Notes: generated by a model from the sequence alone, not told the origin. DNA of 38,152 bases from Leptospiraceae bacterium (GCA_020441025.1 JAGRMX010000001.1:1-38152); one strand, 5' to 3'; shown: positions 7,629 through 35,690, numbered from the stretch's first letter. Program-made: numbers and translations.

Positions 7629-8303
7629 TTAACCTCCGAAACTGCCGCCGTGAATAAAGGCGCGCATATTCCGTTTCACTTCTTTTAACTGACGCGAGTC
7701 CGGTGTGGTGGTTTGATCATAAACACCGGTTACCAGCGCGGTGAGCAACATTTCAATCGCGCCAAAAAACGCGAAACTCAGCAGGCGCGTGTCCGCGTCT
7801 TTAGAAAGCTCTCCGCTGACGATGGCCGCTTGAAAAATATTTTCAATCTGTCCGATTATCCGCCGCACAATCTCCAATTGCGGTAAATCGGGAATATGAT
7901 GTGAGTGTACAATCTCGTGCACCAGAATCTTAATGATGTCCGGTCGAGCGATAAAGGTATCCAGCATGTAGTCCGAAATCTCCGCCAGTTTGTGGGTGGC
8001 CGGTATTTCCTGCGCGCTGATGCGGGCAATACGCTCGCCGAAACGCTCCCATAGATTTTCAAACAGGGAGGAAAGGATGTTCTCCTTGCTGCCGAAATAA
8101 TGATAAACCAGCCCATAAGCCACTCCGGCCTTCTCGGCAATGTCGGAGATGCGGGTATTGTGATAGCCGCGCTCCGCGATTACCTCAATGGCCGCCTGTA
8201 ATATGTCCGATTGGCGTTCCTGACGCTGCCGTCGCCGTAAAGACCCCGGAGGATTGTCCTGCTCCGGTTTTGGGCGCTTCCTGTCTGGCATGGGGCGGGC
8301 CAC
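7629..8303 (-). CDS. TetR/AcrR-family transcriptional regulator (FadR/YsiA-like by context)
   Basis: N-terminal HTH (ILQAAIEVIAERGYHNTRISDIAEKAGVAYGLVYHYFGSKENIL). It is the first gene of the tetR-acd-acd operon. The start is either the GTG at 8303 or the ATG at 8291. Confidence 0.85.
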   Translation of the reverse strand: MARPMPDRKRPKPEQDNPPGSLRRRQRQERQSDILQAAIEVIAERGYHNTRISDIAEKAGVAYGLVYHYFGSKENILSSLFENLWERFGERIARISAQEIPATHKLAEISDYMLDTFIARPDIIKILVHEIVHSHHIPDLPQLEIVRRIIGQIENIFQAAIVSGELSKDADTRLLSFAFFGAIEMLLTALVTGVYDQTTTPDSRQLKEVKRNMRAFIHGGSFGG

Positions 8304-8316
8304 AGCTTCGATTCCC

Positions 8317-8346
8317 GAAAGTTGATTGATTTGTCAATCAACTTTC
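8317..8346. promoter_or_regulatory. Putative TetR operator: perfect 13-bp inverted repeat with a 4-bp spacer
   Basis: GAAAGTTGATTGA (8317-8329), tttg, TCAATCAACTTTC (8334-8346). It lies 14 bp upstream of the tetR start. On the minus strand it contains TTGACA. Confidence 0.55.
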
Positions 8347-8387
8347 GCCCGTTTTGCGATCTCTGCGGAAAGGTTTTCAGCGGGCCC

Positions 8388-8453
8388 GGCTTGCGCGCTT
8401 TTCTTAAAAGGTTTTTCGCCGCTGTGGACTTTCGCCGATCACACGGTACATCC
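8388..8453. repeat. Partial repeat copy A1, matching the 5' part of repeat unit 2
   Basis: 64 of 66 nt are identical to 8809-8874. Identity ends exactly where the P2 loop apex lies in the full copy. Confidence 0.85.
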
Positions 8454-8486
8454 TGTTGCTCGCCTGGTTTGTACGCCTTATATATG

Positions 8487-8590
8487 GATTTCCGGAACGC
8501 AGAGTTTCCGCCGTCGACACGGTGCGTCCTGCACCGGGTCGACGTAAGCCCCGTCCGTGGAGCTTGACGTAAACTCTGTGTCCGGAAATC
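8487..8590. ncRNA. Candidate structured element H1 (three-way junction); transcribed strand unknown
   Basis: P1: 8487-8507 with 8571-8590. P2 outer: 8512-8518 with 8538-8544. P2 inner: 8520-8525 with 8531-8536, loop gtcct. P3: 8547-8552 with 8559-8564, loop gtccgt. Confidence 0.45.
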
Positions 8591-8774
8591 GACCGTACAC
8601 GCGCAAACAGACTCGCGGGGAAATGAGTGTGGGTGGTATGGGTGCTGATGTGCGGGGATAGTAATGTTTTTTTATATTCAGCGTGCGATTTGTCGGTTTG
8701 ATCCGATTCTCCGGCGCGGATTTTGCTATATTTGTACTATAATATGGGGCTGCCCAACCCCTCCCCCTACTTAC

Positions 8775-8783
8775 ATTATAGCA
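8775..8783 (-). promoter_or_regulatory. Possible extended -10 promoter element (TGCTATAAT) on the minus strand, in module B1
   Basis: The plus strand reads attatagca, so the minus strand reads TGCTATAAT, a perfect TGnTATAAT. An identical copy lies at 9104-9112 in B2. There is no convincing -35. Confidence 0.3.
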
Positions 8784-8797
8784 CGACCCTGTGACAC

Positions 8798-9127
8798 GTT
8801 GCTCGCCTGGCTCGCGCGCTTTTCTTAAAAAGTTTTTCGCCGCTGTGGACTTTCGCCGATCACACGGTACATCCGTGTACCGGGTGATCGGAGGCTCCGT
8901 CCCTGGAGCCTGACTCAATTCCACAGCGAGCGAAAAACTACAATCTGCGCGCAAGCAATCTCGCTGTGAATGCACGTTGGTGATATTGGTGCGTTAGTGC
9001 GGGGATAAAAATTCGTTTAACTATTTTCCCTGCGATTCTCTGGCGCGGATTTTGCTATATCTGTATTATAATATGGGGCTGCCCAACCCCTCCCCCTACT
9101 TACATTATAGCACGACCCTGTGACACG
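8798..9127. repeat. Tandem repeat unit 2 (junction 13-mer, fold H2, tail, 88-bp module B2)
   Basis: It starts with the same gttgctcgcctgg. Module B2 (9040-9127) is 85/88 identical to B1. Confidence 0.8.
8831..8939. ncRNA. Candidate structured element H2 (same three-way-junction architecture as H1)
   Basis: P1: 8831-8849 with 8920-8939. P2 outer: 8856-8863 with 8884-8891. P2 inner: 8865-8870 with 8877-8882, loop atccgt. P3: 8893-8898 with 8905-8910, loop gtccct. On the minus strand P1 is followed by TTTTT. Confidence 0.45.
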
Positions 9128-9212
9128 GTGCCGGCCGACAATGGATTCGCAAGTCGGGACGCATGTCGGGAATAAGCGTGGTATTACTGCGTTTGTGCGG
9201 ATAAAAAGTGAG

Positions 9213-9776
9213 TTACTCTTCTACAATCAGCGTAACTACGCGGCGGGCGCGATCATTGTTTTCCATGCTTTCGATATTGCGAACGCGCATGGTAGGCGGC
9301 GCCATATGCCGGGAATGCAGTTCACCATCGGGAGTAAGCATCCAGACCAATCGCACGTAGCCGCCGGCGGTTTGAAATCTAATATAGGCATGCACCTGCT
9401 CGGACCGCGAGCGACCGTACGTAATCCAATGGGCGCTGGTATCGGCCGCGACAATCTCACCTTCGCGTGGAGCGATGTGCCAGACTCCGCTCAATAACCC
9501 GGAAGCGCTGAGCGTTAAATTGGAGGCGGTTCTATTTACTATTACACAACGAACCGATCGTGCTCCGGCCATGGTGACTACCGGTGTTGAAGGCGATTCT
9601 TCGGTAGTCGCCGTTGGTTGTGTCCGGTTCTGCTCTTCGGTTGATTGGCAGCCGGTGACGGTGGCCATAAAAAACAGTCCGACAACGAATACGACCGGAG
9701 CGTGGTGTACATTCAAGCTGAAGATGGATTTCACCTTTACGATACTAAATCCTGAATGTGTTATCGACAAACCCAT
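9213..9776 (-). CDS. Hypothetical lipoprotein, beta-rich
   Basis: Lipobox FFMATVTG-C. A GTG at 9734 would give the cleaner signal peptide MKSIFSLNVHHAPVVFVVGLFFMATVTGC. No family is confidently recognised. Confidence 0.55.
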   Translation of the reverse strand: MGLSITHSGFSIVKVKSIFSLNVHHAPVVFVVGLFFMATVTGCQSTEEQNRTQPTATTEESPSTPVVTMAGARSVRCVIVNRTASNLTLSASGLLSGVWHIAPREGEIVAADTSAHWITYGRSRSEQVHAYIRFQTAGGYVRLVWMLTPDGELHSRHMAPPTMRVRNIESMENNDRARRVVTLIVEE

Positions 9777-10177
9777 TCCGATACGTGTACGGCCGTACCG
9801 CAGTATTCATTGCGGGTACCGGAGGTCGGCTGACAGGGGCCTACTTCCGTTTGCAACGTACCGGTAATCTGAACGTCCTGCGCGCAATCAATCGCATTGT
9901 TGCTGATGAAAATCCATTGGCCGAATTCGGTTTCCCAGTACGATTCGACTTTTTCAAATTGAGTAATGGGATGCTGTAGAACCATCTCCGGACGATGAGC
10001 GCTGAGGCGCACGGACTTCCCATTGCATTGCTGTAGTGCGTCCTTTTTCAGAGTACAGAATTCGTTTTGGGTTTCATTGCCTGCCTGGCAATGTGCAAAT
10101 AAAAACAATGCCACGCAGATACCCAAAGCCTTATGACGAAAGTTGTTTCTATTTGAACTTTTATAATTTATGCGCAT
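9761..10177 (-). CDS. Small secreted cysteine-containing protein (138 aa)
   Basis: The internal ATG at 10177 (MRINYKSS...) is preceded by AAGGAA. Signal peptide ALGICVALFLFAHCQA. The longer track ORF (to 10375) has an implausible N-terminus. Confidence 0.5.
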   Translation of the reverse strand: MRINYKSSNRNNFRHKALGICVALFLFAHCQAGNETQNEFCTLKKDALQQCNGKSVRLSAHRPEMVLQHPITQFEKVESYWETEFGQWIFISNNAIDCAQDVQITGTLQTEVGPCQPTSGTRNEYCGTAVHVSEWVCR

Positions 10178-10457
10178 GATTCGTTCCTTTCGTTCCGGAA
10201 AAAGTAGATATCCCTGATTGCCAAAACCGAGAAGAAGGCATTGTTTTGAGATGAGTTCTGAGCTTCGAGAGAAATTATGCGTCAAAATTTGTAAATCAAA
10301 TAACCGCTCTCTCGTGTGTGATTGCTTGATGGCAGCGATTTGAGCATGTTTATGATTTGAATCAGCCCGGCGCAAACATGAAATGATTGCTCACAGAATA
10401 CCGGAATTGCATATGATACCGGCCATTATAACAGACCACTATAACAGAGGTACAATT

Positions 10458-11147
10458 ATGCAAACCGATCAGAGTAAACTGGATTGTGCCCGGATCGATT
10501 CGGACCTGGAGGCAAGCCTGGACCCGATCGAGGCGCGGGCCGAATTGGTGCGATTCAGTCATGCTTCCGCTCGCGCCGGGTTGATGGGATCGACCTGTGG
10601 CAATGCCAGTTTGAAAATCGACGCCCATCGCTTCCTGATTACCGGCACCGGCACCGAACTGGCTCATTTACGAGATAACGAGATTGCGTTGGTATCTATT
10701 GATGACGGCCGCCACCTGGATGGCCCGCGTCCATCGGTCGAAGCGGAGTTGCATCGATTGGTATACGCCGGGCGTGCTTCTGCCCGGGCCATCTTGCACT
10801 GCCAGAGCAGGGCGGCTACCCTGGCAGCCTGTATGGTGGACCCGCCCGAAAATCTGGATTTCATCGGAGAGATTCCGGCCTATGTCGGTCGCTTTGCCAG
10901 CGTGCCGTTTTTGATGCCGGGCAGTCCGGAACTGGCGCAGGCCGTTGCGGCGGCTTTTACCGATCCGGAAGTAACCACCGTGCAGATGCGCAACCATGGG
11001 CAGGTGCTGATTGGTTCTTCCTGGGCGAAGGCGATTCGTCGGGGCGTATTCTTTGAACTGGCCTGCTGGATGGCGGTGCAGGGCGTTCCGTTAACGCGCA
11101 TTCCCACCGAACAGGCCGATGAATTGCGCCGTATGTCGTCGGTTTGA
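10458..11147 (+). CDS. Class II aldolase / adducin N-terminal domain family protein
   Basis: GNASLKIDAHRFLITGTGTEL...PSVEAELHRLVY...ILHCQS matches the class II aldolase fold (fuculose-1-phosphate aldolase / MtnB type). AGAGG lies 8 nt upstream of the ATG at 10458. Confidence 0.8.
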   Translation: MQTDQSKLDCARIDSDLEASLDPIEARAELVRFSHASARAGLMGSTCGNASLKIDAHRFLITGTGTELAHLRDNEIALVSIDDGRHLDGPRPSVEAELHRLVYAGRASARAILHCQSRAATLAACMVDPPENLDFIGEIPAYVGRFASVPFLMPGSPELAQAVAAAFTDPEVTTVQMRNHGQVLIGSSWAKAIRRGVFFELACWMAVQGVPLTRIPTEQADELRRMSSV

Positions 11148-22257: not shown

Positions 22258-22977
22258 ATGAAAGAATCAGCGACTACCGGCATAGCCCTCGACGGCGGTG
22301 CCATGCGCCTATCCTTCTTCGGCGGGTTCTTGCAGAAAATACAGGAAGAGGGATACCCGGTCGATGAGATGGTGGGCATTTCCAGCGGCGCTCTGGTGGC
22401 ACTGGGATTCATGGCCGGATTTTCCATGCAGGAAGTGTATGATACGCATCTGCAATGGATTTATGAACGGCGTCTCCAATACAATATTTACGAAAAGTAT
22501 CTGGATCATTTCGATTATTTGCTGACGGATGAAATGATCGCCGGTCTGAATGGTCGCTTGAAGATAGTGGCCAGTCGCCTGACTCTGTTGGGGCCCAGGA
22601 CCGAAGTGTTCGATCACTTTAAAGACAAAGCCGATCTTAAAAATAAAATTCTGGCATCCGGCAGCATTCCGTACTTTAATCAGTTCCCGTTATGGATGAA
22701 TGGAAACCTGTACGTGGACGGCTATGTGACCTGTCGCAATCCGGCGCAGTACCTGTCCGCTTCTGATAAACTTTCCGTGCTCGCCATTCGGGAGTTTTCG
22801 GATAGTGATGGTGCCGCAAGGTTGGGTGATACGGTTGAGATGCGTTCTTTTGAAGGCTTTCCCGCGGTGTATACATTTGTCGCCAGCAAAGACGCGATTC
22901 AAGCATGGTTCCGGTACGGCTACCGGCAGGCGGAAGAGTATTTATCGCGGACGAATCGAATTTGCTTTCATCGTTAA
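22258..22977 (+). CDS. Patatin-like phospholipase
   Basis: The oxyanion region GIALDGGAMR, the nucleophile elbow GISSG (GxSxG) and the catalytic Asp in VDGY occur in the canonical order. Confidence 0.8.
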   Translation: MKESATTGIALDGGAMRLSFFGGFLQKIQEEGYPVDEMVGISSGALVALGFMAGFSMQEVYDTHLQWIYERRLQYNIYEKYLDHFDYLLTDEMIAGLNGRLKIVASRLTLLGPRTEVFDHFKDKADLKNKILASGSIPYFNQFPLWMNGNLYVDGYVTCRNPAQYLSASDKLSVLAIREFSDSDGAARLGDTVEMRSFEGFPAVYTFVASKDAIQAWFRYGYRQAEEYLSRTNRICFHR

Positions 22978-23023
22978 AGTCGGCTTACACCTGATGAATC
23001 GTATATGGCTGCGGCATATCTCT

Positions 23024-24115
23024 TTAGATACGTGCTTTGGTGTGTAACTCCTGCATGATTTCTTCCATTGCTCTATCTATAGCCGATTCGGGTGAGAGCC
23101 CAAAATCTTCCACTTCTATCGACCAGAGAATGCGATTGGTTTCCACTGAAATGCAACGTACGGTTAAATGCGCGTCATAGGAAGAGCTATATGCGGGGCG
23201 CACCGTGAGTGTAGCGGAAACCAGGCGATCCACATTAAGCTGATGACCGAGTCGATTGCGGGCCGATTCGGTCAGGCCCGACTGACTGTGTGCCAGCTCA
23301 TCCAGCACCAGATCCATTTGTTCTCGTTCAACGATGATTGCACCGGAACGAACAAAGTGGCCTTCGAGTATGCGGCGCGTGCTGATTGCATAGTCTTCCT
23401 CCGCTTCAACCGGACCGATTGCGTATACGGGTTTTGCGCCGATCGTAAAGTGTGTTAACAATGTTTCATCACGAGCCAGGTCCGAACGCAGATCGGCTTC
23501 GAATTGATTGAAAACGACCTGTGATAGATCCGGATTGCGTTCATTGGAGCTCATGGAAAAGCGTTCTGAAACCAGAGCAAAAACAGGACCGGCAAGTGCA
23601 ATGGCCCAGCCAACCAAAAAGCGATGTTTTACGGGATAGCGATACTCTTTGATTATTTCCCGTCGCTTGCGGTCAAACAGCGTGAATCCCATCATGCCCT
23701 TTGTATCGCCGTATCCCGGGAAAGTACCCAGCGTGAGAAAAAATGGGATCTGAGTAAGATTGTCTTTATCGGTAAACTCCAGCAATTCGGGCCTGACGAT
23801 TATAACTACGTTTGCGCCGGAATCCAGGCGAAAATGTCGGCTGGCACGGAAGGATTGGACGATATCCCCGGAAAAATAATTGGCCACCAATTGTCGATTG
23901 ATATACGATTCACTGTAGGGCGTGGGCGCCGGACGAACATTGCGTCCGGCTTCATCCAGATGCAATTGTATCGGCAGGGTCTCATCGCTGCGATCCTCAA
24001 ATGATTTCAACAGTGGAGCGGCGCCCAAAAGATCGCCTTCCACGTTTACCTGATGCATGACACAGCTATTATTCGAAAGTACGATTGCTGTGATTATGAA
24101 CAGTGCACGGCGCAT
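23024..24115 (-). CDS. Lipoprotein; C-terminal region resembles CsgG/LpoB-type domains
   Basis: Lipobox LSNNS-C. The C-terminal pattern IIVEREQMDLVLDELAHSQSGLTE...LGHQLNVDRLVSATL is typical of CsgG/LpoB-like lipoproteins; this call is from memory only. Confidence 0.6.
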   Translation of the reverse strand: MRRALFIITAIVLSNNSCVMHQVNVEGDLLGAAPLLKSFEDRSDETLPIQLHLDEAGRNVRPAPTPYSESYINRQLVANYFSGDIVQSFRASRHFRLDSGANVVIIVRPELLEFTDKDNLTQIPFFLTLGTFPGYGDTKGMMGFTLFDRKRREIIKEYRYPVKHRFLVGWAIALAGPVFALVSERFSMSSNERNPDLSQVVFNQFEADLRSDLARDETLLTHFTIGAKPVYAIGPVEAEEDYAISTRRILEGHFVRSGAIIVEREQMDLVLDELAHSQSGLTESARNRLGHQLNVDRLVSATLTVRPAYSSSYDAHLTVRCISVETNRILWSIEVEDFGLSPESAIDRAMEEIMQELHTKARI

Positions 24116-24231
24116 TGTGATTCAATGAATCGCGCCTATATTGTTTTTCAGCAATCAAAAATTTTCATTCTGAAATGCGTCGGTTGGCTTAAACAGGGCG
24201 AAAAAGCCGTTTTGTTATCATAATTTCCGCT

Positions 24232-24492
24232 TTAATGCATTGCCTGCGTGGTTCGACCCCGAACCCGGAGCGCCGAGTCGGCCCGCCTGTTTTGAGATTT
24301 TCGCTTACGCTTGCGAAAATCGGTCAACAATAGTTTATACGAAACGATCATTGAAACCACTACATTGCCGGCGATTAATATCATCATGGGAATGAAAAAT
24401 AGAGATGTAACGGAACTACGCACAAACGTATCAAAAAAATATGTAAACATTGAGACCATGATTACATTCAGGCCGGCATAAAACCAGCGCAC
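24232..24492 (-). CDS. Membrane protein fragment or small membrane protein (2 TM, basic tail)
   Basis: GTG-started 86-aa ORF. It is in the same frame as 24565-24834, and no stop other than one TAG separates the two. Confidence 0.4.
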   Translation of the reverse strand: MRWFYAGLNVIMVSMFTYFFDTFVRSSVTSLFFIPMMILIAGNVVVSMIVSYKLLLTDFRKRKRKSQNRRADSALRVRGRTTQAMH

Positions 24493-24564
24493 CTGTCGAG
24501 ACCAGGAAGTGTTGGTGCAAATAATACCCCGGATGCCGAAATCCCGGAAAGCGTCGTTGGGATT

Positions 24565-24834
24565 CTAGTCGGGGGAGCAGAAATAGGCCCATACCGCAGC
24601 GCAAATGGCGAACATAATGAAATGGTGGACATAAATCCAGGCATTGAATCGTAGAATTTTAAAATCTAAGATCATCAACAGACAGGATATGCTGAAGATC
24701 GATACGAATACGGTTCTGTGCGGCCGTAGTGGCGTGAAGGCGGGGACTGTCTCGATTGCGTACAAAACGCATCCGCCCCAGAATAAAAAGTGTAATGAAG
24801 CTTTTCGGAAATTCCAGAGCATCGAGTTACGCAT
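24565..24834 (-). CDS. Membrane protein fragment or small membrane protein (3 TM)
   Basis: 89-aa ORF with hydrophobic helices. It ends at the TAG at 24565-24567. Confidence 0.4.
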   Translation of the reverse strand: MRNSMLWNFRKASLHFLFWGGCVLYAIETVPAFTPLRPHRTVFVSIFSISCLLMILDFKILRFNAWIYVHHFIMFAICAAVWAYFCSPD

Positions 24835-24955
24835 GCGTCGACTCCTGGATATTAAAACTAACAGGAAGCATCGGCGCGACCATCGGTCAAGAATAACTGA
24901 GAATTGTTATTAATTGATGTATTTTTTAATCCTGTAGATTAATACATTTTATAAT

Positions 24956-25001
24956 GGAATGAACAGTGGAAATGCATTTGCGAGTATCCACTGTTCATTC
25001 C
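24956..25001 (-). terminator. Strong hairpin downstream of the DUF1566 gene
   Basis: Perfect 14-bp stem: ggaatgaacagtgg (24956-24969) pairs with ccactgttcattcc (24988-25001) across an 18-nt loop. An AT-rich tract follows on the minus strand. Confidence 0.5.
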
Positions 25002-25036
25002 GTTTTAAGCTCCGCTTGTTGCGATTTCCGCGCCAA

Positions 25037-26506
25037 TCAGTTGCGAACGCAACGCACATACATGCCGTCTTCGCCGTTTCCATCCCGGAGAATATCGCCC
25101 TGCGGTCCCCAGTAGAAAAAGGTTCCGAAACCCACATTGGCGGAAGCGGCGCCGCCTTTTGTGGAAACGTCGTCCTTATCGTCGCTGCGCTGCGATCCGG
25201 CGCCATGTACATCCTGCACTGAATTTAGATAATACCCCAGGGCTCTTCCGAAGGCCATATAAGCGCCGGAAGTCACATCATCCGTTCCGCCGCAAGTGCT
25301 GGAGGCGTTATCACACGCTACATGCGTGGTGGAGGACCAATAGGTGGCATAATCGGTTATGCCTTCTTCATTTGTAAATGAAGTGGCGTTAAAAATGGAA
25401 TTAATAGCCGCCGAGCCCGTATAATCCGGTGCGCGGGAATAATCCAGAATACTCTGCAACTCTTTAATGTTCGGTACGCGCCAGTTTGATGATCCACCGA
25501 GGGAAAGACCTTCGCAATAGGTCAGGGCCTGGTCGAAGGTGCGTGAAGTTCCGCTGTCGCCCTGCTGCCAGGTCAGTCCGGTCGCGTTATCCGTAATCGT
25601 ACCGTTGCCGTTATTGGTGAAGTTATTCAATCCGTAATCTGAGTTTCCTCGCACACATTGTACGTAAAAGGTCTTTGTGGAATTGCATTCGTACCCCTTG
25701 ATGCGACCATCCACAAAGTTCACCCCAAAAACACCCGTATCCGTATCAAAGATTTTGCCGCCATAAACGTTGGTGGAAGCGTATTGCCCGTCGATCAATC
25801 GCTCTCCGGAGGAAGTGTCGCCAAAGCCGACGCTGAAGACGGAGTCATCCATGAAGGTTTTTCCGCTCAGGTTGCCGGAAGCGCAATTCGTACAGGAACT
25901 CGGATCGCGTCCCTGACCAAAGTTCATTAATGAATAGAGCTCTTTCACCGTAGGCAATCGCCAATCACTATGACCGGCATACGTTAACGATGAGCAATAT
26001 GAAACGGCGGAAGACTGAGTTAGCTTGTCGCTGGAATTGATCGAACTATCGCCGTTCGTATCAGCCGAGTTAACCCACATTAGACTCGTGCGATTGTCCG
26101 TGATGGTGCCGTCCGCATTGTTGGTATAGCTCGGCGTATTGCCGGTATAAAAACCGTCCTGTGCCGCCGTGCCGCCACCCGAACACCCCACCGTGCCGCT
26201 ATTGGTGCCGTAGCAGGTGGTCTGACCCGTATCCACAAGGGTATAGTTGCCCGTACTGGTGGTCGTTGTAATACTTTGCACCTGATAGCTGCATCCGTCG
26301 CTGCTGCTGGAAGTTGTGGATAGCAGCAGCAGCGCCAATAACTGAGTCGAATCGTCGTCGTCTTCATCCGTAAGGCCCAATAGATCGCATCCCGCTATGG
26401 ACACAGTCACTGAGAGCGTTGCACTTAAAAGCAGGCGTGGAAGCCAGGTCGATATGAATTCGATTCTTTCGCCCGGGTTCAGTATTTTAGGTTTCATCTG
26501 ATTCAC
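25037..26506 (-). CDS. DUF1566 (Lcl C-terminal domain) lipoprotein, two domain copies
   Basis: Lipobox VSIAG-C. The signatures DWRLPTVKELYSL and NWRVPNIKELQSIL are diagnostic of DUF1566. Confidence 0.85.
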   Translation of the reverse strand: MNQMKPKILNPGERIEFISTWLPRLLLSATLSVTVSIAGCDLLGLTDEDDDDSTQLLALLLLSTTSSSSDGCSYQVQSITTTTSTGNYTLVDTGQTTCYGTNSGTVGCSGGGTAAQDGFYTGNTPSYTNNADGTITDNRTSLMWVNSADTNGDSSINSSDKLTQSSAVSYCSSLTYAGHSDWRLPTVKELYSLMNFGQGRDPSSCTNCASGNLSGKTFMDDSVFSVGFGDTSSGERLIDGQYASTNVYGGKIFDTDTGVFGVNFVDGRIKGYECNSTKTFYVQCVRGNSDYGLNNFTNNGNGTITDNATGLTWQQGDSGTSRTFDQALTYCEGLSLGGSSNWRVPNIKELQSILDYSRAPDYTGSAAINSIFNATSFTNEEGITDYATYWSSTTHVACDNASSTCGGTDDVTSGAYMAFGRALGYYLNSVQDVHGAGSQRSDDKDDVSTKGGAASANVGFGTFFYWGPQGDILRDGNGEDGMYVRCVRN

Positions 26507-26741
26507 TCCTTCCCGATTTGAATCGCAAAGCGCATTCCGGGGGATTTGAACAGATACTATACCGATGCGATGATGCGATCGTCCGAGCCGTGCGGTTCGG
26601 ACTGTATTAAGATTCTATCTAACATAAACATGTGATGCTTCATCTTATCAAATGTTCAGGAGATTCTCCGGGAGCGGAAAAAACTTGCGGTTCGAGGTTT
26701 GAATACGCTGGAAAACTATCCGGCGCTTATAAAATCGTGTT

Positions 26742-28016
26742 ATGCATATTTTACCGGCCGCCATGTTCGGATTCTGCATGTTTTCAGCTCTGTTGATCGT
26801 ATTCAGCGGTCGGAGCGCGGCGCGCTACTATCTTGTGGGGCTCCTGGTGAACCTATCGTTCGGACACCTGGTGCATGCGGCGGATTTTTTTTCAAATGAA
26901 TCTCCTCGAATTGTTATGCTGGTGATGAATGCGCGCGTTTTTTTGTATGGGCCATTGATCTATTTATTTCTCGTGCAATCCATTAAAATGCGGCGAAAAT
27001 GGCATCCGGGTGATGTGTTGCATTTCTTTCCGGCGATATTGTCATTTGTCCTTTTATTGTTTGTTTCTGTTCAAAAAAATGAGCAATCGAGAATATTTTT
27101 ATTTTCATTAATGTTACATGCTCAGATTTTATTAATGTCCATTTATGGAGTTCGCATCTATTCGCAGATCCGGGATTATATACCTGATCCTCTGGCGGGA
27201 AAAATCAATCGCAACTGTCCGGGCGGGCAGGGTTTGCTCGTCGCTATTGTCATGTTTTTTTTACTCTGGATGGCGCAGCAGTTGTTGATGCTCTATCTGG
27301 AGGGGGATGCGGGGATATATAAGCACGTCAGGTTAATTCGCGGCATAATTATATTATCTTATACGTTGACCATCTGTTATGTCGCTGTGCGCATGTTTTT
27401 GACTGAATCGCGAAGAAAACCAATAGCTTCCATTGCGAACAACATGCAGGAATCGTCAGTCTCCAATGGTGAGATGGGGCATGTAACCCAATTGCACAAT
27501 GGGGTCCGAAACGGTTTGGATGGTAATGGTGATCAACTAAATGAACACTCACATGATTCTGAATGCGAACGCAAATACAGTCGTTCCGGATTAAAATCGG
27601 ATCAGATTCCGGTTGTTCTGGACAGAGTCGTTCATTATATGGAAACCTGTCGCCCCTATCTGGACCCGGAGTTTGCTCCCCGGGATATGGCCGCAGCGTT
27701 GGATCTGCCGGTAGCTCGTATCAGTCAGGTCATCAATCAAGAATTGCAGACCAATTTTTATGGTTTGGTGAATCAGTACAGAGTTGAGGCCGTCATCAAT
27801 GAATTGTTGAACGACCCGAATGCGTCTGTGAATCTTTTGCATCTGGCGTTGAACTCCGGATTTAATTCGAAATCCACGTTTAACAGCGCGTTCAAACGTA
27901 TAACCGGACAGACACCTTCTGAATTCAAGGCGGATCTTACCCGTGATGGATCGGGTTCCGCTTTGCCGCGGCATAAGTGTGAACCGAACAGATCATACGT
28001 ACAATCCAGTCAGTGA
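26742..28016 (+). CDS. Membrane-anchored AraC-family transcriptional regulator
   Basis: About 6 N-terminal TM helices. The C-terminal HTH_18 region is LVNQYRVEAVINELL...LHLALNSGFNSKSTFNSAFKRITGQTPSEFK. Confidence 0.8.
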   Translation: MHILPAAMFGFCMFSALLIVFSGRSAARYYLVGLLVNLSFGHLVHAADFFSNESPRIVMLVMNARVFLYGPLIYLFLVQSIKMRRKWHPGDVLHFFPAILSFVLLLFVSVQKNEQSRIFLFSLMLHAQILLMSIYGVRIYSQIRDYIPDPLAGKINRNCPGGQGLLVAIVMFFLLWMAQQLLMLYLEGDAGIYKHVRLIRGIIILSYTLTICYVAVRMFLTESRRKPIASIANNMQESSVSNGEMGHVTQLHNGVRNGLDGNGDQLNEHSHDSECERKYSRSGLKSDQIPVVLDRVVHYMETCRPYLDPEFAPRDMAAALDLPVARISQVINQELQTNFYGLVNQYRVEAVINELLNDPNASVNLLHLALNSGFNSKSTFNSAFKRITGQTPSEFKADLTRDGSGSALPRHKCEPNRSYVQSSQ

Positions 28017-28339
28017 CTCCGGTTACATGCGTCTATACATTAGAATAAACAGGCCGCTCCAGTAACCGCAATTTTGTTCGTCCATTAAAAGGAAGATGCC
28101 GGCTTGATCTTTCTGGAACGACTGCGCCTTGTAATGCGCGCATCAGAGAATTACCTATATCGCAGTGCGAGTTAATCTGATTGTCTGACGTAAAACTAAC
28201 GATTCATCGCCTTATTTCACTACCGATAGAAAACTCAATCGATATTACAGGATCGAAGCTTTATAAGAATTGTTGTTCGGCGGAATTTGCTCGAAATGAA
28301 AATGAACTCAAAACAAAAGAACGCCCCGTCCGCCTGCGT

Positions 28340-29716
28340 ATGGCTGAAAGGATGCGCGGGACTGTACGAGAATATGCTCGTTTCGGGAGATGTCGGGTGA
28401 ATCTCAAGCGAAATAAAACGATTCTACTGGTTGAGAATGAATCCATCCCGGCTAAGATTACTCTGAAGACGTTGCAGCAGGAAGGCTTTCGAGCTGTTCA
28501 CGCTGCCAGCGGGGAAGAAGCCGTCGATATGGCGATTCGAAACAATGAGATCAATCTGGTTCTCATGGATATAGATCTGGGCGACGGTATCGACGGTCCC
28601 GAAGCCGCCCGACGGATCCTGGCGGTCCGAGATATTCCCATAGTGTTTCTAACGTCGCATTCAGAAAAAGAATATGTAGAGCGAGTGAAAAAAATCACGC
28701 GATACGGCTACGTGGTTAAGGATTCGGGAAGCTTTGTGTTATTCTCTTCTATTGAGATGGCGTTTGAATTAAACCAGGCTCACCAGCAAGTCGCCAGCAG
28801 CGAGGAGCGATTTCGACAGCTTGCGGAGAGTACGGAAACATGGATATGGGAAACGGATGCTAACGGCCTGTTTGTTTATTCTAATAGCGTGGTCGAGCGA
28901 ATCCTCGGCTATACACCCGGACAGATAATTCAGAAGAAGCATTTTCATGACTTTTTTCCACGCTCGCAACAGATGTCGTTAAATCTGATGGCACTACAAC
29001 ATTATCAAGCGGGCGGGGGAGATCATAAATTTGAATGTGTCGTGAACCATCGGAACGGCAATCGCGTGATGATCGAGTCCTCCGGATTTCCAATTATCGG
29101 TAAAAACGGCGCCGTTACCGGGTATCGAGGAGTGAATGTAGATGTAACCGAGAAGTGCATTAAGCGTAAATGCGGGCTTATTTATTCGGAGTTTCAGAAT
29201 GCGGTGGCCGAAATTCGCAGTATACCGGAAGTGCTTACATTGGTCGTGGCCACGCTGACGAAGCTGCTCGGAGATAGCATAAACATTGTTTCCTACCTGG
29301 ATGAGTCGACACAAACGCTGCAAATAGCCGATTTTAACGGCCTGAAAAAGCCCATCAGCAAGCTGATTCAAATTCTCGGCCTGGACCCGCGCAAGCACAA
29401 GATTCATGTGGCCGATATTACGCCGGAAGAACTGGACATGTATCGCAGTGGTAAACTGGAATTGCTGGAAAACGGACTGTATGTTTTATTCGCTCGAAAA
29501 GTATCCCAGAAAGTATGCGACGCGGTCGGTTCTTTTTTAAATATTCGCAATGTTTACGCCGTAGGTTTTACCAATCGCGGTCGCCATTTTGGCGGAATCA
29601 TTATTCTGACCCGACAGGAATTAAACGCCGAAATCAGCACGATTGAACGTATGGCCGGATATGCCGCCATAGCCATTAAAAGGTTGGAAGCCGAGTCCGC
29701 CTCACTGGCCGTGTAA
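28340..29716 (+). CDS. Response-regulator receiver + PAS + GAF-like protein without a recognisable output domain
   Basis: REC: KTILLVENE...NLVLMDIDLGDGIDG...YVVK. PAS: EERFRQLAESTETWIWETDANGLFVYSNSVVERILGYTPGQ. The C-terminus is GAF-like. The start is uncertain: ATG at 28340, or GTG at 28397 with GGGAG upstream. Confidence 0.8.
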   Translation: MAERMRGTVREYARFGRCRVNLKRNKTILLVENESIPAKITLKTLQQEGFRAVHAASGEEAVDMAIRNNEINLVLMDIDLGDGIDGPEAARRILAVRDIPIVFLTSHSEKEYVERVKKITRYGYVVKDSGSFVLFSSIEMAFELNQAHQQVASSEERFRQLAESTETWIWETDANGLFVYSNSVVERILGYTPGQIIQKKHFHDFFPRSQQMSLNLMALQHYQAGGGDHKFECVVNHRNGNRVMIESSGFPIIGKNGAVTGYRGVNVDVTEKCIKRKCGLIYSEFQNAVAEIRSIPEVLTLVVATLTKLLGDSINIVSYLDESTQTLQIADFNGLKKPISKLIQILGLDPRKHKIHVADITPEELDMYRSGKLELLENGLYVLFARKVSQKVCDAVGSFLNIRNVYAVGFTNRGRHFGGIIILTRQELNAEISTIERMAGYAAIAIKRLEAESASLAV

Positions 29717-29910
29717 CGCTTACCGGGTCAACTTCTTCACATGGGGATTGCCCCGGTCGTCATAACAAAAATAGCTGGTTCATTCGGTTTTCGTATTTCA
29801 ATGAACTTATCATTGGAAAATCGGAGGCGGATCCTTAAACGGTTCCCGCAGTCAAAGCGCAAGTCAACGCACGGCTTGACTTTTAATTATCAAGCCCGCA
29901 TTCTGCCGGC

Positions 29911-31131
29911 ATGAGTACCCTGCCTCGCGATGAATACAAAGCGCGCTCCATGAGTCTGGTCGCAATCAGTACGACCATAATCATTTCTCTTATTACGGGC
30001 ATACTTGCGTTTATCCAGGCGCATCGTCCGCTGGAATTCGCCGGGGGAGTGGTGAACGTTGCGGGGGCGGTCGTATATATGCTGACCTTGTGGGGGCAGT
30101 GGAAGGGTCGTTCGCTGGCTCCCCGGTTGTTTTTTTTAGTTACGGCCAATATTCATCTGGGCCTGATTGTGTTCTGGTACGGATGGAGCTATGGAGCTTA
30201 TCTTTTTTATCCGGTAATGATGGCCCTGCCGTTTGTAATATTCACGCGCAGGCAAAAAAGACTTATTTTGCCGATGGCGGCGCTGGCACTTTTGATGCTG
30301 GTTCTAATGTTTTCTTTGTTTCAGTTTGCAGGAACAACGCCGATTGTGATTCGGCCGCCTGCGGAATCCGAATTACGCTCTACCATCGGCACGTCCGTAA
30401 ACCTGTTGCTGATGTCTCTGGCCATGATTTTGCTGATGAGGTATATGCGTAATGTTCAATTTCAGGCCGAAGATGGTCTGGAATTCGAGCGCCGCAGATC
30501 TGATGAGTTATTATTGAATGTTTTGCCCGCCCCCATCGCAGAGCGATTGAAAAAGGGAGAGCAACCGATTGCCGATCATTTTGACGCAGTGACCATTTTA
30601 TTTGCGGATATTGTCGGATTTACCGATCTGGCCGCCAAAAAATCGGCCGGCGAACTGGTGGAATTGCTCAATGAGATTTTTTCCGGGTTTGACGAACTGG
30701 CCGATCAATACGAGCTGGAAAAAATAAAAACCATCGGCGATTGCTTCATGGCTGTGGCCGGATTACCCCGACTCCGGGAGGATCATGCCCTGGCTGCGGT
30801 GCGCATGGCGGGTGCAATGCGCGACTTAATGGAAGTGATTCGTTCGCGCAAAGGCATTGAACTTCAAATTCGCATTGGCGTGCATTCGGGACCGGTGGTC
30901 GCCGGTGTAATCGGGCGGCGTAAATTCAGCTATGATCTGTGGGGAGACGCGGTCAACGTCGCCAGTCGAATGGAATCTTCCGGTGAAAGCGGCAGGATCA
31001 ATCTCTCGGAGAATACATACCGATTGGTAAACGTGTATTGTGAATGCGAGCACCGGGGGAAAATACACGCAAAAGGAAAGGGCGAACTCGATATGTATTT
31101 TTTGAATCGAATCAAAACGGAAGTTCTTTGA
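29911..31131 (+). CDS. Membrane-bound class III adenylate/guanylate cyclase
   Basis: Six N-terminal TM helices. The catalytic domain motifs are VTILFADIVGFTDL, KTIGDCFMAVAG and YDLWGDAVNVASRMES. Confidence 0.9.
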   Translation: MSTLPRDEYKARSMSLVAISTTIIISLITGILAFIQAHRPLEFAGGVVNVAGAVVYMLTLWGQWKGRSLAPRLFFLVTANIHLGLIVFWYGWSYGAYLFYPVMMALPFVIFTRRQKRLILPMAALALLMLVLMFSLFQFAGTTPIVIRPPAESELRSTIGTSVNLLLMSLAMILLMRYMRNVQFQAEDGLEFERRRSDELLLNVLPAPIAERLKKGEQPIADHFDAVTILFADIVGFTDLAAKKSAGELVELLNEIFSGFDELADQYELEKIKTIGDCFMAVAGLPRLREDHALAAVRMAGAMRDLMEVIRSRKGIELQIRIGVHSGPVVAGVIGRRKFSYDLWGDAVNVASRMESSGESGRINLSENTYRLVNVYCECEHRGKIHAKGKGELDMYFLNRIKTEVL

Positions 31132-31185
31132 TATTGTTTCGTTCTTTTCATTGTCATAAGCCCGGATAATATAGATTATGTTCAT

Positions 31186-31875
31186 ATGATTTTTGGCAGG
31201 CGTCATTCGTGTTTACCGGTTGGTAGTATAATACTCGTCGTTGCTTTTGCTGCTTGCAGTACAATCGATTCGTATGCTTACATGCGGCCGGAAGCGGACG
31301 GCATCGATGTGGTGGATACGTATTGGGGACCGCAAGTTCGGTTTTCATATCCGCGTTTTACGCTGCAGTATGGTCCCGTGGCCATGGGGTCCCATCGCGT
31401 GTCGGATGGCCCCTGTTTATTACCGGTGATTCCGGGCCGGGAGGAATCACCCGCTCCCCTGCAAATAGAGATACATTTACACGCGAACTCTCCGACGCGA
31501 ATTTATCCCGGCAATTGGTCGGTGTACGCGCGGGCGGAAGAGTTTGGTACCTTCATGGGAGATGATGTTTACACGCGTTACAATGCCGTCAATGCGGGCT
31601 TTTTTGATTCGCCGCCGCAAGCATACGATCAAAAAAACATCGGCCACTGGACGGCGGCGGATAATGCGCGTAATGATGCCGTGCTTATTGAATCGGAAGC
31701 GTACGGCGTGATTTTCTTTCCCGTGTATGATAACGAGTTCATCGATTTCAAAATGGAGGCGATTACGGTCGAAATAGAGGGCGAAACGGTGACAGTACCG
31801 GCGATCGATTGGAGTCGGCACGGCAACTGGAAATATGATGCCTTTACTTTAGAGCCGATGATGCCCGATTATTGA
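31186..31875 (+). CDS. Hypothetical lipoprotein
   Basis: Lipobox VAFAA-C; 229 aa. Its 3' end overlaps the convergent ankyrin gene by 7 nt. Confidence 0.6.
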   Translation: MIFGRRHSCLPVGSIILVVAFAACSTIDSYAYMRPEADGIDVVDTYWGPQVRFSYPRFTLQYGPVAMGSHRVSDGPCLLPVIPGREESPAPLQIEIHLHANSPTRIYPGNWSVYARAEEFGTFMGDDVYTRYNAVNAGFFDSPPQAYDQKNIGHWTAADNARNDAVLIESEAYGVIFFPVYDNEFIDFKMEAITVEIEGETVTVPAIDWSRHGNWKYDAFTLEPMMPDY

Positions 31876-33116
31876 GCGTGGTGGCTCAGTAATTGGATTA
31901 TTTCGGTATGATTTTTTTTCTGTGCCCATTGTAGCGCCGTGTCACCTCGCTGGTCTCGGGCGGATATTTCCGCTCCGGAATCGAGCAAGAGTTGTACTGC
32001 TTCGACATTCCCAGAATAAGCGGCCCACATCAGTGCGGTTTCATTATTCATTTCGCGTGCATTTACATTCGCTCCAGCACCAATCAATACGCGCATTGAT
32101 TCTGTGTGTCCACCCTGCGCGGCCAATATCAAAGGAGTACAATCGGAGCCGTGTCTGATATCTATCTTTGCGCCGGCTTCTATTAAAATCCGGACTGTTT
32201 CGACATGGCCTTGCATGGCCGCAATCATGAGCGGCGAAAAATACTCGCCGCGCGCAAATGCATTTATGTTCCCGCCGGCATCAAGTAATAATAAAATTAT
32301 ATTATTATGGCCGCCCCGGGAAGCCTGGACCAATGCTTCGTCCAATCCTTGCCTGGCGGGGTCTCGGCCCGCTTCGGCATTAATCAAATACGTTACGATC
32401 GAAGTTTGTCCATTTGAGGCGGCCGTCATAAGCGCGGTATTATTGGAATAGTCACGATGGTAAATATTGGCTCCATTTTCAACGAGTAACATTACGGATT
32501 CAAGAGAATCGTGCCGCGCTGCCCTGAATAGGGCGGTTGTTTCATACTGATCGGTGCTATCGACTTGCGCTCCAGCCTTCAGCAATAGATGCATGATTTC
32601 CGGTTGAACCGTGTCTGCTGCCAGCATCAATGCCGTTTGGGTGTCTTGATCCTGGGCCTCCGGGTTTACTCCGTTTGCAATAAGCAGGCGAACGATTTCC
32701 ATATGCCGATTTGCTATCGCGGCCATCATTGGAGTGCGCCCCTTAATGTCTGGCAACTCCGGATTCGCGGAAGCCTGTATCAAAAACTTCACAATTTCAA
32801 GAAATCCTCCCGAACTCGCCAGATAGAGAGCCGATTCGCCATAGTTGTTCCGGGCATTCGCATCCAGGCCGGCCTGGAGTAACATTAGTGCCGCGTCTTT
32901 ATTTCTTTCGGAGACGGCAAGCAAAAGCGCCGTATTTCCAGCGCTATCCCTGGCATGAATATCGGCGCCCGCATCGATAGCGGATTGCAAGTCGGCCACA
33001 TTTCCGGATCGGGCGGACTGTAAAAACTCCGTGTTCTTCTGTTTTAGAGACCAACTGTTGCAGGCCGAAAGCAGCGCTGCCACAGTCACGAGTACAATCT
33101 TTTGCTTTTCAGTCAT
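31869..33116 (-). CDS. Ankyrin-repeat lipoprotein (about 11-12 ANK repeats)
   Basis: Lipobox LLSA-C. Repeated xGxTALMxAAxxGHxEIVxLLLxxGAxxN units run throughout. Confidence 0.9.
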   Translation of the reverse strand: MTEKQKIVLVTVAALLSACNSWSLKQKNTEFLQSARSGNVADLQSAIDAGADIHARDSAGNTALLLAVSERNKDAALMLLQAGLDANARNNYGESALYLASSGGFLEIVKFLIQASANPELPDIKGRTPMMAAIANRHMEIVRLLIANGVNPEAQDQDTQTALMLAADTVQPEIMHLLLKAGAQVDSTDQYETTALFRAARHDSLESVMLLVENGANIYHRDYSNNTALMTAASNGQTSIVTYLINAEAGRDPARQGLDEALVQASRGGHNNIILLLLDAGGNINAFARGEYFSPLMIAAMQGHVETVRILIEAGAKIDIRHGSDCTPLILAAQGGHTESMRVLIGAGANVNAREMNNETALMWAAYSGNVEAVQLLLDSGAEISARDQRGDTALQWAQKKNHTEIIQLLSHHAQ

Positions 33117-33437
33117 ATTTGTAGCGTTTTCTCCGGATAACTAAGCTATACATACTATTCTGCCGGCATTTCATTTTTGCAATATGTTTATTTGAAATTG
33201 TAAAAATCCTGAAAACTTGATGCGGGTCAGTCAATCAACAAAAATCGGTATTCGGCCCGGTTGCGTTGTGGTTTCAGATTGTGCGGGGCAAGTCAGTTGC
33301 GTGGGTTGAGCATCTCCGGAGTAATAAAAAACAATAGACATCAAAAAATGAATGTCCGATTTCTGGAAATCGGGCGGCGTTTGGGCTTTTGTAAGCATCG
33401 TTACACCGTCAATATATCGAGGCCAGAGCAGGCGCAT

Positions 33438-35690
33438 ATGAGCAGGGCGGACGCGGAAAAATTTTATAATGAAGGTGTGGTGCTCGCTAATGAAGGCAAG
33501 CTGCGTGAAGCGCTGGCGGCATTTGATGAAGCGATTCGATTGGATAAGGATTTTGGGTTTTCGCACAATGGCCGGGGTAATGTTTTGTTCTGTTTGGCAT
33601 TTTATGAAGAGGCACTGGCGGCGTATGAAAATGCAATTCGATTGAATAAAGGTGATTCACTTCCTCATAACGGTCGCGGTAACGCATTGCTTTACCTGAG
33701 GTGTTATGAAGAAGCTCTGGTGGCCTTTGACGAAGCGATTCGTTTGGCTAAAGATTCTGCGCATCCTCATAACGGTCGCGGCAACGCATTGCTTGAGCTA
33801 AGGCGATCTGAAGAAGCTCTGGCGGCCTTTGATAAAGCGATTTGCCTGGATAAAGATTTTACGCACGCTTATAATGGTCGCGGCAATGCTTTGTTCGAAC
33901 TGAGTCGATATGAAGAAGCGCTTAAAGCATATGAAGAAGCGCTCCGTTTGGACAGGGAAAATGCGCATTCATACAATGGTCGCGGAAATGTTTTGTGTGA
34001 ACTAAACCGGCATGACGAAGCGCTCAGTGCATATGCTGAGGCTATCAAATTGGATTCTAATTTTCCGCTTCCCTGGTTAAATCTGGCCATCCTGTCCCGA
34101 AACATAGACGCAGGCTACAACACCGAACAGTGTCTCTATCGCTACTATTATTTAGAAGATAGAAGTATCCCGGGGGTAAAGTTTCAGATTTTTATCCAAT
34201 TCTTTGAGTATCAATTGTATGCGCCGTTGTTCGTATATCGACTCTTTCAGGAGTATGAGGAGTATCAAACCTTTCTTCAGTATGGGAATCTGATTCAGAC
34301 AACCCTGCAACAGTGTGCGGACGCCCTGTCGTTGATTGAGTATCTGGAATCGGATGCCTGCTCGCTGGATGCGATCGCACGAAAAAAATTACACGCCTTA
34401 ATTCGGTTTCACCTCGGCGATCCGTTTTACGCCCGACAGCTGTACGACCATGTGCTGGAAAGCAACGCGGATGATCTATGTGCGCATTACGGGCGAATCG
34501 GTTGCCTGTTTATGTACCTGGCCGACAATGAACTCGATTCGGCTTACGAGCAGGCCATGCAGGCCATGACTCGTTTGGGGGCCCGTGAATCGGATGATCG
34601 GCAGCCTGTCGAATACTATTATGCCGGACTGATAATGTATGAATGTGCTCCTGACAGTGTTGATAATCCGAGCGCGCGCGGAGTTTACCAGTCGGCGCTG
34701 GCTTACTTTGAAAAAGCGGGCGATTATTTGCCGGCGCTCTACATGCGCGCGTTGATGCTTGTGCTGTCGGACCGGAAACCCGAAGCGATTGAAATATATG
34801 GAGCCATTCTGAAAGAGGAGCGATTATTAAGGGCCGGCAATCAGCATGGCGGCTATCTATGCGGAGTTTCGGTCTGGGACATCGATTTTGATGATCCCGA
34901 ATTCCAATTGCCGTTTTATCACTATGCGCATGCTATCGAGATTTCCGAAGCGCTGGTTGTTTTGTTTGAATGGCTGGAGGAATGGGCCGACCCGATCGAT
35001 CATAAACTTGCGCAGGAGTTTCGAAATTTTCTCAAGCGGCATCCGATACAATTAAATAAAGAAACGCGATTGAATGCAAGCTGGCGGTTTACCGAGCACA
35101 CGAAGCAAAAATTAGCGCGGCTGAAAGAAATCGATATTGAGCAAAAGCTGGAAATTCTCGCGGTTCATTTGAGTCAATCTTTCCCCGCATGGGCAGAATT
35201 TCTGGAGCAAAACCCGGATCAAATCGCCCGGAGCCTGGGCCGGAGCATTCAGAATAAAGAACAGGAGGCGCTCGCTTATCATCGAATGATCGTTTATCTG
35301 TACGCCCGAGGAAAGTTGCCGGAACGGACCGCCGTTCTATTGCTGTTCTATTCGTTGATGACCCAATCGCCCCGGGAAATATTTAAGATAGGCCGGGCCG
35401 CGTTTTTCGGGCTGGCCTCGGAAATCTTTATGGAATATACCCTGGGTTCGGTGCTCGCGCAGACCGGGTTGCTGTTGCCGGGAGGATTGATTGGCATCGG
35501 AGTATTTATAATGTTTATGGAATTTGTGAAGAAAAGGTCGGATCAAAAGTCCGAAGTCATCGAATTTCGTGCATTCAAAGCGAATTTTCTCGCGTTTATC
35601 GAGCGGCGCAGGGTACAATTGGGTGCGGCATTCAGTGAAAAATACCCCATGGACAATCCGGAACGGTGGCTGGAGCAGTTAATGGATTGA
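33438..35690 (+). CDS. TPR-repeat protein with a long uncharacterised helical region and C-terminal TM helices
   Basis: Six near-consensus 34-aa TPR units (HNGRGNALxxLxRYEEALxAFDEAIRLDKD) are followed by about 470 aa of unknown sequence. Hydrophobic helices lie near the C-terminus (LLLPGGLIGIGVFIMFMEF). The start is uncertain: 33348, 33438, or the track TTG at 33261. Confidence 0.75.
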   Translation: MSRADAEKFYNEGVVLANEGKLREALAAFDEAIRLDKDFGFSHNGRGNVLFCLAFYEEALAAYENAIRLNKGDSLPHNGRGNALLYLRCYEEALVAFDEAIRLAKDSAHPHNGRGNALLELRRSEEALAAFDKAICLDKDFTHAYNGRGNALFELSRYEEALKAYEEALRLDRENAHSYNGRGNVLCELNRHDEALSAYAEAIKLDSNFPLPWLNLAILSRNIDAGYNTEQCLYRYYYLEDRSIPGVKFQIFIQFFEYQLYAPLFVYRLFQEYEEYQTFLQYGNLIQTTLQQCADALSLIEYLESDACSLDAIARKKLHALIRFHLGDPFYARQLYDHVLESNADDLCAHYGRIGCLFMYLADNELDSAYEQAMQAMTRLGARESDDRQPVEYYYAGLIMYECAPDSVDNPSARGVYQSALAYFEKAGDYLPALYMRALMLVLSDRKPEAIEIYGAILKEERLLRAGNQHGGYLCGVSVWDIDFDDPEFQLPFYHYAHAIEISEALVVLFEWLEEWADPIDHKLAQEFRNFLKRHPIQLNKETRLNASWRFTEHTKQKLARLKEIDIEQKLEILAVHLSQSFPAWAEFLEQNPDQIARSLGRSIQNKEQEALAYHRMIVYLYARGKLPERTAVLLLFYSLMTQSPREIFKIGRAAFFGLASEIFMEYTLGSVLAQTGLLLPGGLIGIGVFIMFMEFVKKRSDQKSEVIEFRAFKANFLAFIERRRVQLGAAFSEKYPMDNPERWLEQLMD
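33453..34064 (+). repeat. 102-bp-period coding tandem repeat (the TPR units)
   Basis: Successive 102-nt blocks beginning cataacggtcgcgg(t/c)aacgcattgctt... are visibly similar at the DNA level. Confidence 0.7.

Follow-up and report, generated by a model that had tools for sequence, protein, structure and literature searches.

A non-coding region (8300-9215) in a 38,152-nucleotide (nt) stretch of DNA from a Leptospiraceae bacterium (GCA_020441025.1 JAGRMX010000001.1:1-38152; the whole stretch is called the window below) contains two elements of approximately 105 nt, H1 (8487-8590) and H2 (8831-8939), which fold alike while their sequences differ. This locus raises the question of whether the fold is maintained for an RNA, for a function of the DNA itself, or for no specific function. 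An earlier note on this DNA had reported the two elements, and RNA and DNA folding returned them at the same coordinates and with the fold described there. The structure is real and has been maintained, and the element lies outside every described family. We tentatively favour, at somewhat less than an even chance, the reading that a structured non-coding module, specific to this lineage, is present here in three paralogous copies (H1, H2 and H0, of which H0 is truncated); it would offer twin loops to a partner and would most likely act as RNA.

Both elements form a three-way junction in which a closing helix (P1) of 19-20 base pairs (bp) with one bulged A encloses two hairpins, P2 in two parts and the short P3. 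P1 of H1 has 20 bp, P2 has 7+6 bp and P3 has 6 bp, and the loops are GCGTCCTGC at 8524-8532 and CCGTCCGTGG at 8551-8560. The same fold was obtained for H2 by folding, a covariance model and pair counts; its loops are CATCCGTG at 8870-8877 and CCGTCCCTGG at 8897-8906, and its P2 hairpin reads GUACACGGAUGUAC on the minus strand. Features cited without a strand, H1 and H2 included, are assigned to neither strand. The stems of H2 are all Watson-Crick except for the bulged A in P1 and an A/G mismatch in P2. This 1x1 mismatch is kept in P2 of both copies, and the bulged A lies 10 bp up P1 on the plus strand in both, yet on opposite arms. The conserved unpaired positions named in the earlier note, namely the A/G mismatch, the TGAC 3' of P3 and a TCC in each of the four loops, were all found again. 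The 6-bp P3 that it described is present in both copies, but P3 of H1 carries a C.A mismatch on the plus strand, which is a U.G wobble on the minus strand. The junction strands on the plus strand are UUUCCG or CUUUCG, then 0-2 nt, then UGACGUA or UGACUCAAU.

The folds are far more stable than expected by chance. The minimum free energies of the RNA were -60.3 (H1) and -66.8 kcal/mol (H2) for the plus strand and -62.7 and -65.4 kcal/mol for the minus strand, with z-scores from -7.6 to -10.4 over both elements and strands; none of 200 shuffles was equally stable. DNA parameters predicted the identical junction in H1 and H2, with z-scores from -8.3 to -12.6.

The kinship of the two elements was borne out by a covariance model for which H2 with its structure was the only input and which retrieved H1 at 69 bits (E ~1e-16). 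The same model gave no further match in the 38-kb window or in the loci of relatives that were searched. In the model-guided alignment of H1 and H2, which comprises 41 pairs, 94.2% of cells were standard pairs, and only 29-44% were standard when the 3' partners were slid by 1-3 columns as a control. Fourteen of the 41 pairs have changed on both sides (nine in P1, four in P2 and one in P3), values that none of 500 shuffles matched; the two sequences compared are paralogues, separated by a few hundred bases within a single tandem array of a single species, and are not independent homologues. Unpaired positions were conserved at 19 of 25 sites, compared with 47 of 81 in the stems. The P1 arms had been called unrelated, which overstates their divergence: the structural alignment shows 9 of the 19 P1 pairs unchanged, and identity over P1 is 16/37. 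Between strains, H1 shows only two changes, seen in contigs L001 and L002 of two other metagenome-assembled genomes of the same species, and both are structure-neutral: 8526 lies in a loop, and a U-to-C change at 8579 turns a G.U into a G-C pair. The earlier note took structure kept while sequence drifts as the signature of a functional RNA or of a functional single-stranded DNA hairpin. The 14 doubly changed pairs support this, but hairpin-templated repair of DNA would fit them equally well.

The element could not be assigned to a known family, as had been supposed. Cmscan against Rfam gave no match at the gathering thresholds in the whole window, and a search of 8250-9300 with Rfam 15 at E<=10 returned three chance-level matches of 15-17 bits against thresholds of 35-104. 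The scans of the window also showed that the element is neither coding nor a tRNA or tmRNA. The hammerhead core is absent, in line with the earlier statement: CUGANGA and GAAA do not occupy the required junction strands on either strand in any permutation, and cmscan gave no hammerhead match.

The loops of the module are nearly alike. All four terminal loops of H1 and H2 follow C-N-UCC-N-UG on the plus strand; read on the minus strand, this becomes CA(N)GGA(N)G, the hairpin consensus of CsrA/RsmE. The minus-strand loops read CAGGACG and CACGGACG in H1, CACGGAUG and CAGGGACG in H2, and CAGGAUG in the remnant of H0. The differences between loops and the polymorphism of L002 fall only on the N positions, and the pattern CA.?GGA.G occurs in 8380-9140 five times on the minus strand (the H0 remnant included) and not once on the plus strand. 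In a structured RNA module, P1 would serve as a long clamp helix whose sequence is free to change as long as pairing holds. The twin loops would be the working surface, and a dimeric loop-binding partner could bridge both.

The most specific candidate for such a partner would be CsrA on a minus-strand transcript. The P2 hairpin of H2 on the minus strand, GUACACGGAUGU, fits RUACARGGAUGU, the consensus of E. coli CsrA, at 11 of 12 positions. Each module holds two GGA motifs separated by approximately 29 nt, a distance over which a single CsrA dimer could span both in two-site binding. Leptospira CsrA binds GGA hexaloops, and in Leptospira genomes no csrB/csrC homologue is present, while fliW adjoins csrA and FliW has been proposed as the antagonist (PMC8668096). 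For L. biflexa, one 'CsrA-like ncRNA' (non-coding RNA) is known from computational prediction only (PMC4863578). We regard it as decidedly unlikely that an RNA which binds CsrA is transcribed from the minus strand of the array, each module of which would clamp two consensus GGA hairpins for one dimer.

The earlier note counted two copies. H1 and H2 are indeed complete, but the truncated H0 had been missed, together with the sigma-54 promoters, the tandem unit and the variation between strains, as had the fact that the TCC loops read as CsrA-type GGA loops on the minus strand. H0 (8410..8453) contains only the 5' arms of P1 and P2, and the linker preceding H1 comes directly after it. Its positions 8411-8453 are identical to 8832-8874 of H2, and the direct repeat D2 (8384-8453 and 8805-8874, 70 nt) is 96% identical; H0 is also present in L001 and L002. 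The copies lie in a tandem unit of approximately 330-345 bp, composed of a linker, H, a spacer, and a block with a sigma-54 promoter and leader. The linker GTTGCTCGCCTGG (8455..8467, plus strand, with a second copy at 8798-8810) marks the unit boundary. The spacer from H1 to the first sigma-54 site (8591..8703) has the conserved blocks CGCGCAA..CTCGC and GTGCGGGGATA, and its paralogue lies between H2 and the second sigma-54 site (8940..9032). The two spacers, of approximately 95-115 bp, are identical at 61 of 93 positions (66%), with 20 gap positions.

The promoter and leader block is a 104-nt repeat on the plus strand whose copies, D1a (8704..8807) and D1b (9033..9136), are 94% identical. Both open with an exact YGGCGCG-N4-TTGCT sigma-54-type site, CGGCGCGGATTTTGCT at 8712-8727 and TGGCGCGGATTTTGCT at 9041-9056. 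A hairpin of 45 nt with a weak AU stem and a C-rich loop follows at 8737-8781 in D1a (z -0.4, unexceptional) and at 9066-9110 in D1b. On the minus strand, TGCTATAAT is found in each D1 (8783-8775 in D1a), a U5 run comes right after the P1 stem of H2, and U4 comes after H0. The tract GCGCGCTTTTCTTAAAA(A), which gives rise to these U runs, lies directly 5' of H2 (8814..8830) and also 5' of H0 (8393-8409). The motif GTGCGGGGATA is found at 8650-8660 and 8997-9007, which is 62 and 44 bp before the sigma-54 sites, and a degenerate third copy lies past the array at 9194-9207; it could serve the promoter region as a site for a bound protein.

Other strains bear on how the array arose. L001 and L002 are 99.7% identical to the window up to approximately 8703 and then diverge; their order is H1, spacer, TGGCGCGAGTTTTGCA, a 135-nt leader and the gene for a ROK-family (NagK-like) kinase. 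This order implies that, before the duplication, H lay upstream of the promoter and outside its transcript. The promoter block 8704-8741 is only approximately 81% identical between strains (compared with L001 1040-1180 and with L002). Where these strains have the ROK gene, the window carries D1a, H2 and D1b together with an operon of open reading frames (ORFs) without known relatives. In L151, a contig whose ROK orthologue is 93% identical, the sequence begins within the sigma-54 promoter and keeps only the TTGCA end of that promoter and the leader, tatacgggggctgccggg...tttacattcc, which is visibly homologous to the D1 hairpin region. The shared promoter and the leader homology in L001 and L151 indicate that the array consists of tandem duplications of the ROK upstream region, that is, of H, spacer, sigma-54 promoter and leader. 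The ROK leaders of L001 and L151 also contain 'cgcttgccagg', to which the linker is similar.

The 3' arm of the D1 hairpins, ACATTATAG, has as its counterpart ACATTCCGAG or ACATTCCGGG in the leaders of the ROK genes of L001 and L151. It looks as if this arm had been remodelled to complement the 5' arm CTATAAT. The remodelling may represent a local template-switch event, which would also have created the TATAAT boxes on both strands.

By sequence comparison, the H1-type and H2-type units are old paralogues, and H0/H2 and D1a/D1b are recent copies. An independent metagenome scaffold (L004) is 100% identical to the window over the H2 region. Independent metagenome and Logan assemblies break within the array, L004 at 8779, L152 in H0 and L151 in the promoter, and the copy number in natural strains may therefore exceed that of the window. 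The available sequences thus comprise two complete paralogues and one half, plus three strains that are nearly identical.

In another explanation, H would be cis-regulatory DNA of the sigma-54 promoter and would act as an enhancer or architectural element, either by binding an enhancer-binding protein or by forming a cruciform whose extrusion aids looping. The exact sigma-54 site begins 122 bp after H1 and 102 bp after H2, a difference of 20 bp or approximately two helical turns. H thus occupies an upstream-activating position (~80-200 bp before a GG-N10-GC promoter), it does so at the ROK gene of L001 and L002 as well, and an AT-rich tract separates it from the promoter. What disfavours this role is that conservation is confined to the centres, which are the loops, whereas the stems, as the would-be half-sites, co-vary and are not the same in P2 and P3; this is the reverse of a dimeric protein site. 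The window holds no gene for an enhancer-binding protein, and we know of no enhancer layout with 20-bp arms 65 bp apart. The ROK orthologues of more distant relatives (60-65% identity) stand in other contexts, and their different short upstream regions have neither the sigma-54 promoter region nor H. We consider a regulatory DNA element of this kind quite improbable.

Searches for further copies bear on a second DNA-level explanation. Model and pattern searches of the 38-kb window found no copy beyond 8384-8939. A scan of a genome collection with the short pattern CCGTCCNTGGAGCNTGAC gave at least 117 chance matches, none of them with P2 context among the matches listed, and a scan of JGI metagenomes with a 19-base P2 pattern gave 23 matches, none with flanking complementarity. 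Two patterns had no match in viral contigs, BLAST of E. coli genomes, plasmids and phages found none, and TetR orthologues (64-67% identity) have short upstream regions without H. If H were a dispersed repeat of the repetitive extragenic palindrome type (REP/REPIN-like) or of the miniature inverted-repeat transposable element type (MITE-like), it would be present here two and a half times by chance. Its intergenic position, its very stable hairpin of ~100 nt and its REPIN-doublet size would suit such a repeat, assemblies break at the locus, and the genome was inspected over 38 kb only. It counts against this explanation that the searches showed no further copy and that conservation is lowest at the termini: P1, which would form the terminal inverted repeats, is identical at 16/37 positions. 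Neither target-site duplications nor direct repeats flank H1 and H2, no transposase or RAYT gene is present in the window, and the copies were not separately inserted but sit within a larger unit that was duplicated as a whole. We regard a dispersed repeat as very improbable.

For the favoured RNA module, transcription from either strand is plausible from the arrangement of the locus. The minus strand is the one with which all flanking genes in the window are co-oriented. The candidate signals for a small RNA on this strand are the TGCTATAAT of each D1 and the U5 past H2; there is no -35 element, and a consensus scan found nothing. The U5 following H2 on the minus strand means that H2 could also terminate a minus-strand transcript. 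In a plus-strand version, the sigma-54 promoter at 8712-8727 would fire towards H2. It points at H2, which lies approximately 94 nt downstream, and no terminator was detected between them. With a minus-strand transcript bound by CsrA, the array would supply CsrA with an RNA partner or antagonist that arose recently by duplication of a promoter-upstream region, which is the reading judged decidedly unlikely above.

Several observations speak against an RNA module. The stems (58% identity) have diverged as fast as the flanking spacer (66%), and the conservation of loops and junction (76%) does not clearly exceed that of the spacer. Seven of the 14 double changes are of the transversion type and seven of the transition type. 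The 82 pairs of H1 and H2 together include approximately two wobbles, few for an old RNA: one G.U for the plus strand (P1 of H1, polymorphic) and one U.G for the minus strand (P3 of H1). With one wobble per strand, both strands fold equally well, and the folding energies, being equal on both strands, do not decide the strand. H2 is absent at this locus in L001 and L002. No homologue was found outside the species, and the element is perhaps young and dispensable. As regards CsrA, the density of GGA is ordinary (15 on the minus strand and 13 on the plus strand in 761 nt), which argues against a sponge of the CsrB/RsmZ type, and H1 on the minus strand lacks a U tract. The CsrA match was noticed in hindsight, and the P2 and P3 hairpins of the two copies do not count as independent samples.

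The pattern of divergence would suit a DNA palindrome without a sequence-specific function. In this explanation, H would be a nested inverted repeat in a tandemly duplicated intergenic region prone to recombination, and intra-strand template switching or repair templated by the hairpin would preserve the complementarity of its arms; any role as a terminator or as a stabiliser of mRNA 3' ends would then be a by-product. Template switching in replication is documented to create and maintain hairpins (PMC8794818), and the element is confined to one lineage. The stems are near-perfectly Watson-Crick on both strands and fold equally as DNA, they remain paired while diverging as fast as the flanks, and the two types of double change are equally frequent. 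Transversion-type double changes, for which no wobble intermediate is possible, suit copying of one arm from the other at the DNA level. The locus also rearranges, as shown by the remodelled 3' arm of D1, the truncated H0, the strain-variable array and the assembly breaks. However, blanket copying of arms should have erased the A/G mismatch of P2 and the bulged A of P1, which are kept in both copies. The P2 and P3 loops are alike and vary only at particular positions. With 14 compensated and approximately three broken pairs, repair would have to outrun mutation without selection, and H1 and H2 have coexisted long enough for their spacers to diverge by 34%. We hold this palindrome explanation to be unlikely and rank it next after the structured RNA module.

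Overall, H is well supported as a structure and is confined to one locus of one uncultured lineage. Without independent homologues, the compensatory changes fall short of proof.

The array is flanked by a minus-strand TetR gene and a minus-strand run of ORFs. The TetR gene (7629-8291, Pfam TetR_N) starts with an ATG at 8291; a longer ORF with a GTG start is not on record. A perfect palindrome at 8316..8347, with 14-nt arms CGAAAGTTGATTGA/TCAATCAACTTTCG and a 4-nt centre, lies 25 nt upstream of this ATG and outside the repeat unit. It is probably the TetR operator of the TetR/acyl-CoA dehydrogenase operon. On the other side, four overlapping minus-strand ORFs (9213-10997) encode proteins of 187, 204, 101 and 109 amino acids (aa) without a Pfam or NCBIfam match, and the 187-aa ORF had no homologue among 5.8 billion proteins.

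Further along the window, a cluster at 22258-35690 resembles eukaryote-like or host-interaction genes. It includes genes for a patatin (22258-22977), a protein with an Lcl C-terminal domain (25037-26506), a class III nucleotide cyclase (29911-31131) and a 415-aa ankyrin-repeat protein (31869-33116), as well as that for an 809-aa tetratricopeptide repeat protein, in which five 102-nt tandem repeats occupy 33507-33995. Just past the Lcl_C-domain gene, a terminator-like hairpin at 24949-25008 has a 22-bp stem (91% complementary), a 16-nt loop and a T run, and beside it lies a one-mismatch sigma-54-like site on the minus strand (25020-25035).

If H is an RNA, it would be a new structured family of unusual design, a rigid clamp presenting two identical protein-type loops. 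If CsrA is its partner, RNA-based control of CsrA would reach the spirochaetes, for which the literature offers FliW and one predicted non-coding RNA (PMC8668096, PMC4863578). If template switching is the cause, the locus would be a clean bacterial case of apparent covariation without selection. It would then be a caution for the discovery of RNAs by covariation, as the 14 'compensatory' pairs stem from two neighbouring paralogues. Either way, a strain-variable and assembly-breaking array lies beside a sigma-54-controlled sugar-kinase gene and a TetR/acyl-CoA dehydrogenase operon.

Several known systems share features with H. Like REP/REPIN and MITE repeats, it is a stable intergenic imperfect palindrome of approximately 100 nt in more than one copy, but it is local and tandem in the available sequence and its outer arms are the most variable part. 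A MITE was rejected since conserved terminal inverted repeats and target-site duplications are lacking. Integron attC sites are likewise imperfect palindromes with conserved unpaired bases, in the 57-141 nt class. However, the ends of H1 (GATTTCC...GGAAATC) and H2 (AGTTTTTC...GAAAAACT) do not fit RYYYAAC/GTTRRRY, the window has no integrase, and the copies do not follow each ORF but form part of a duplicated unit of larger size. H2 and H0 may be likened to intrinsic terminators on the minus strand, where their stems are followed by U5 and U4 and H2 lies downstream of a co-oriented operon. H differs in being branched, its stem base is A/U-rich, the consensus terminator scan did not report it, and no U tract follows H1 on either strand or H2 on the plus strand. 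Also rejected were a retron (no reverse transcriptase), an invertible switch (65 bp would be too short a segment), NtrC-type sites (their half-sites stand in reversed order, which H2 does not conserve) and coding sequence (the ORFs over the region are spurious, as compensatory stem changes would be senseless for a protein).

Among structured RNAs, purine-type riboswitch aptamers and hammerheads also have a P1 around two hairpins, with partly conserved junction strands (here TGAC and CGCCG). A P1 of 19-20 bp is far too stable for riboswitch switching, and the loops of H, being alike and not complementary, could not form a loop-loop kiss. A riboswitch was rejected, as neither strand has a downstream ORF or expression platform and Rfam gave no match. 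The TwoAYGGAY RNA motif of Rfam resembles H in its two adjacent hairpins with GGA loops, and ACGGAU and ACGGAC fit AYGGAY. It differs in that only two of the four loops here fit AYGGAY and that cmscan gave no match at E<=10; to our knowledge, this motif has no long closing helix. The likeness to the CsrA/RsmE GGA hairpins (CsrB, CsrC, RsmX/Y/Z and hcnA-type) lies in the GGA of every minus-strand loop and in the tandem modules. The Rfam models of these RNAs had no match even at E<=10, and the sponges carry many GGA sites. Their hairpins are short stem-loops on a flexible chain, whereas those of H are rigid long stems held in a 20-bp clamp.

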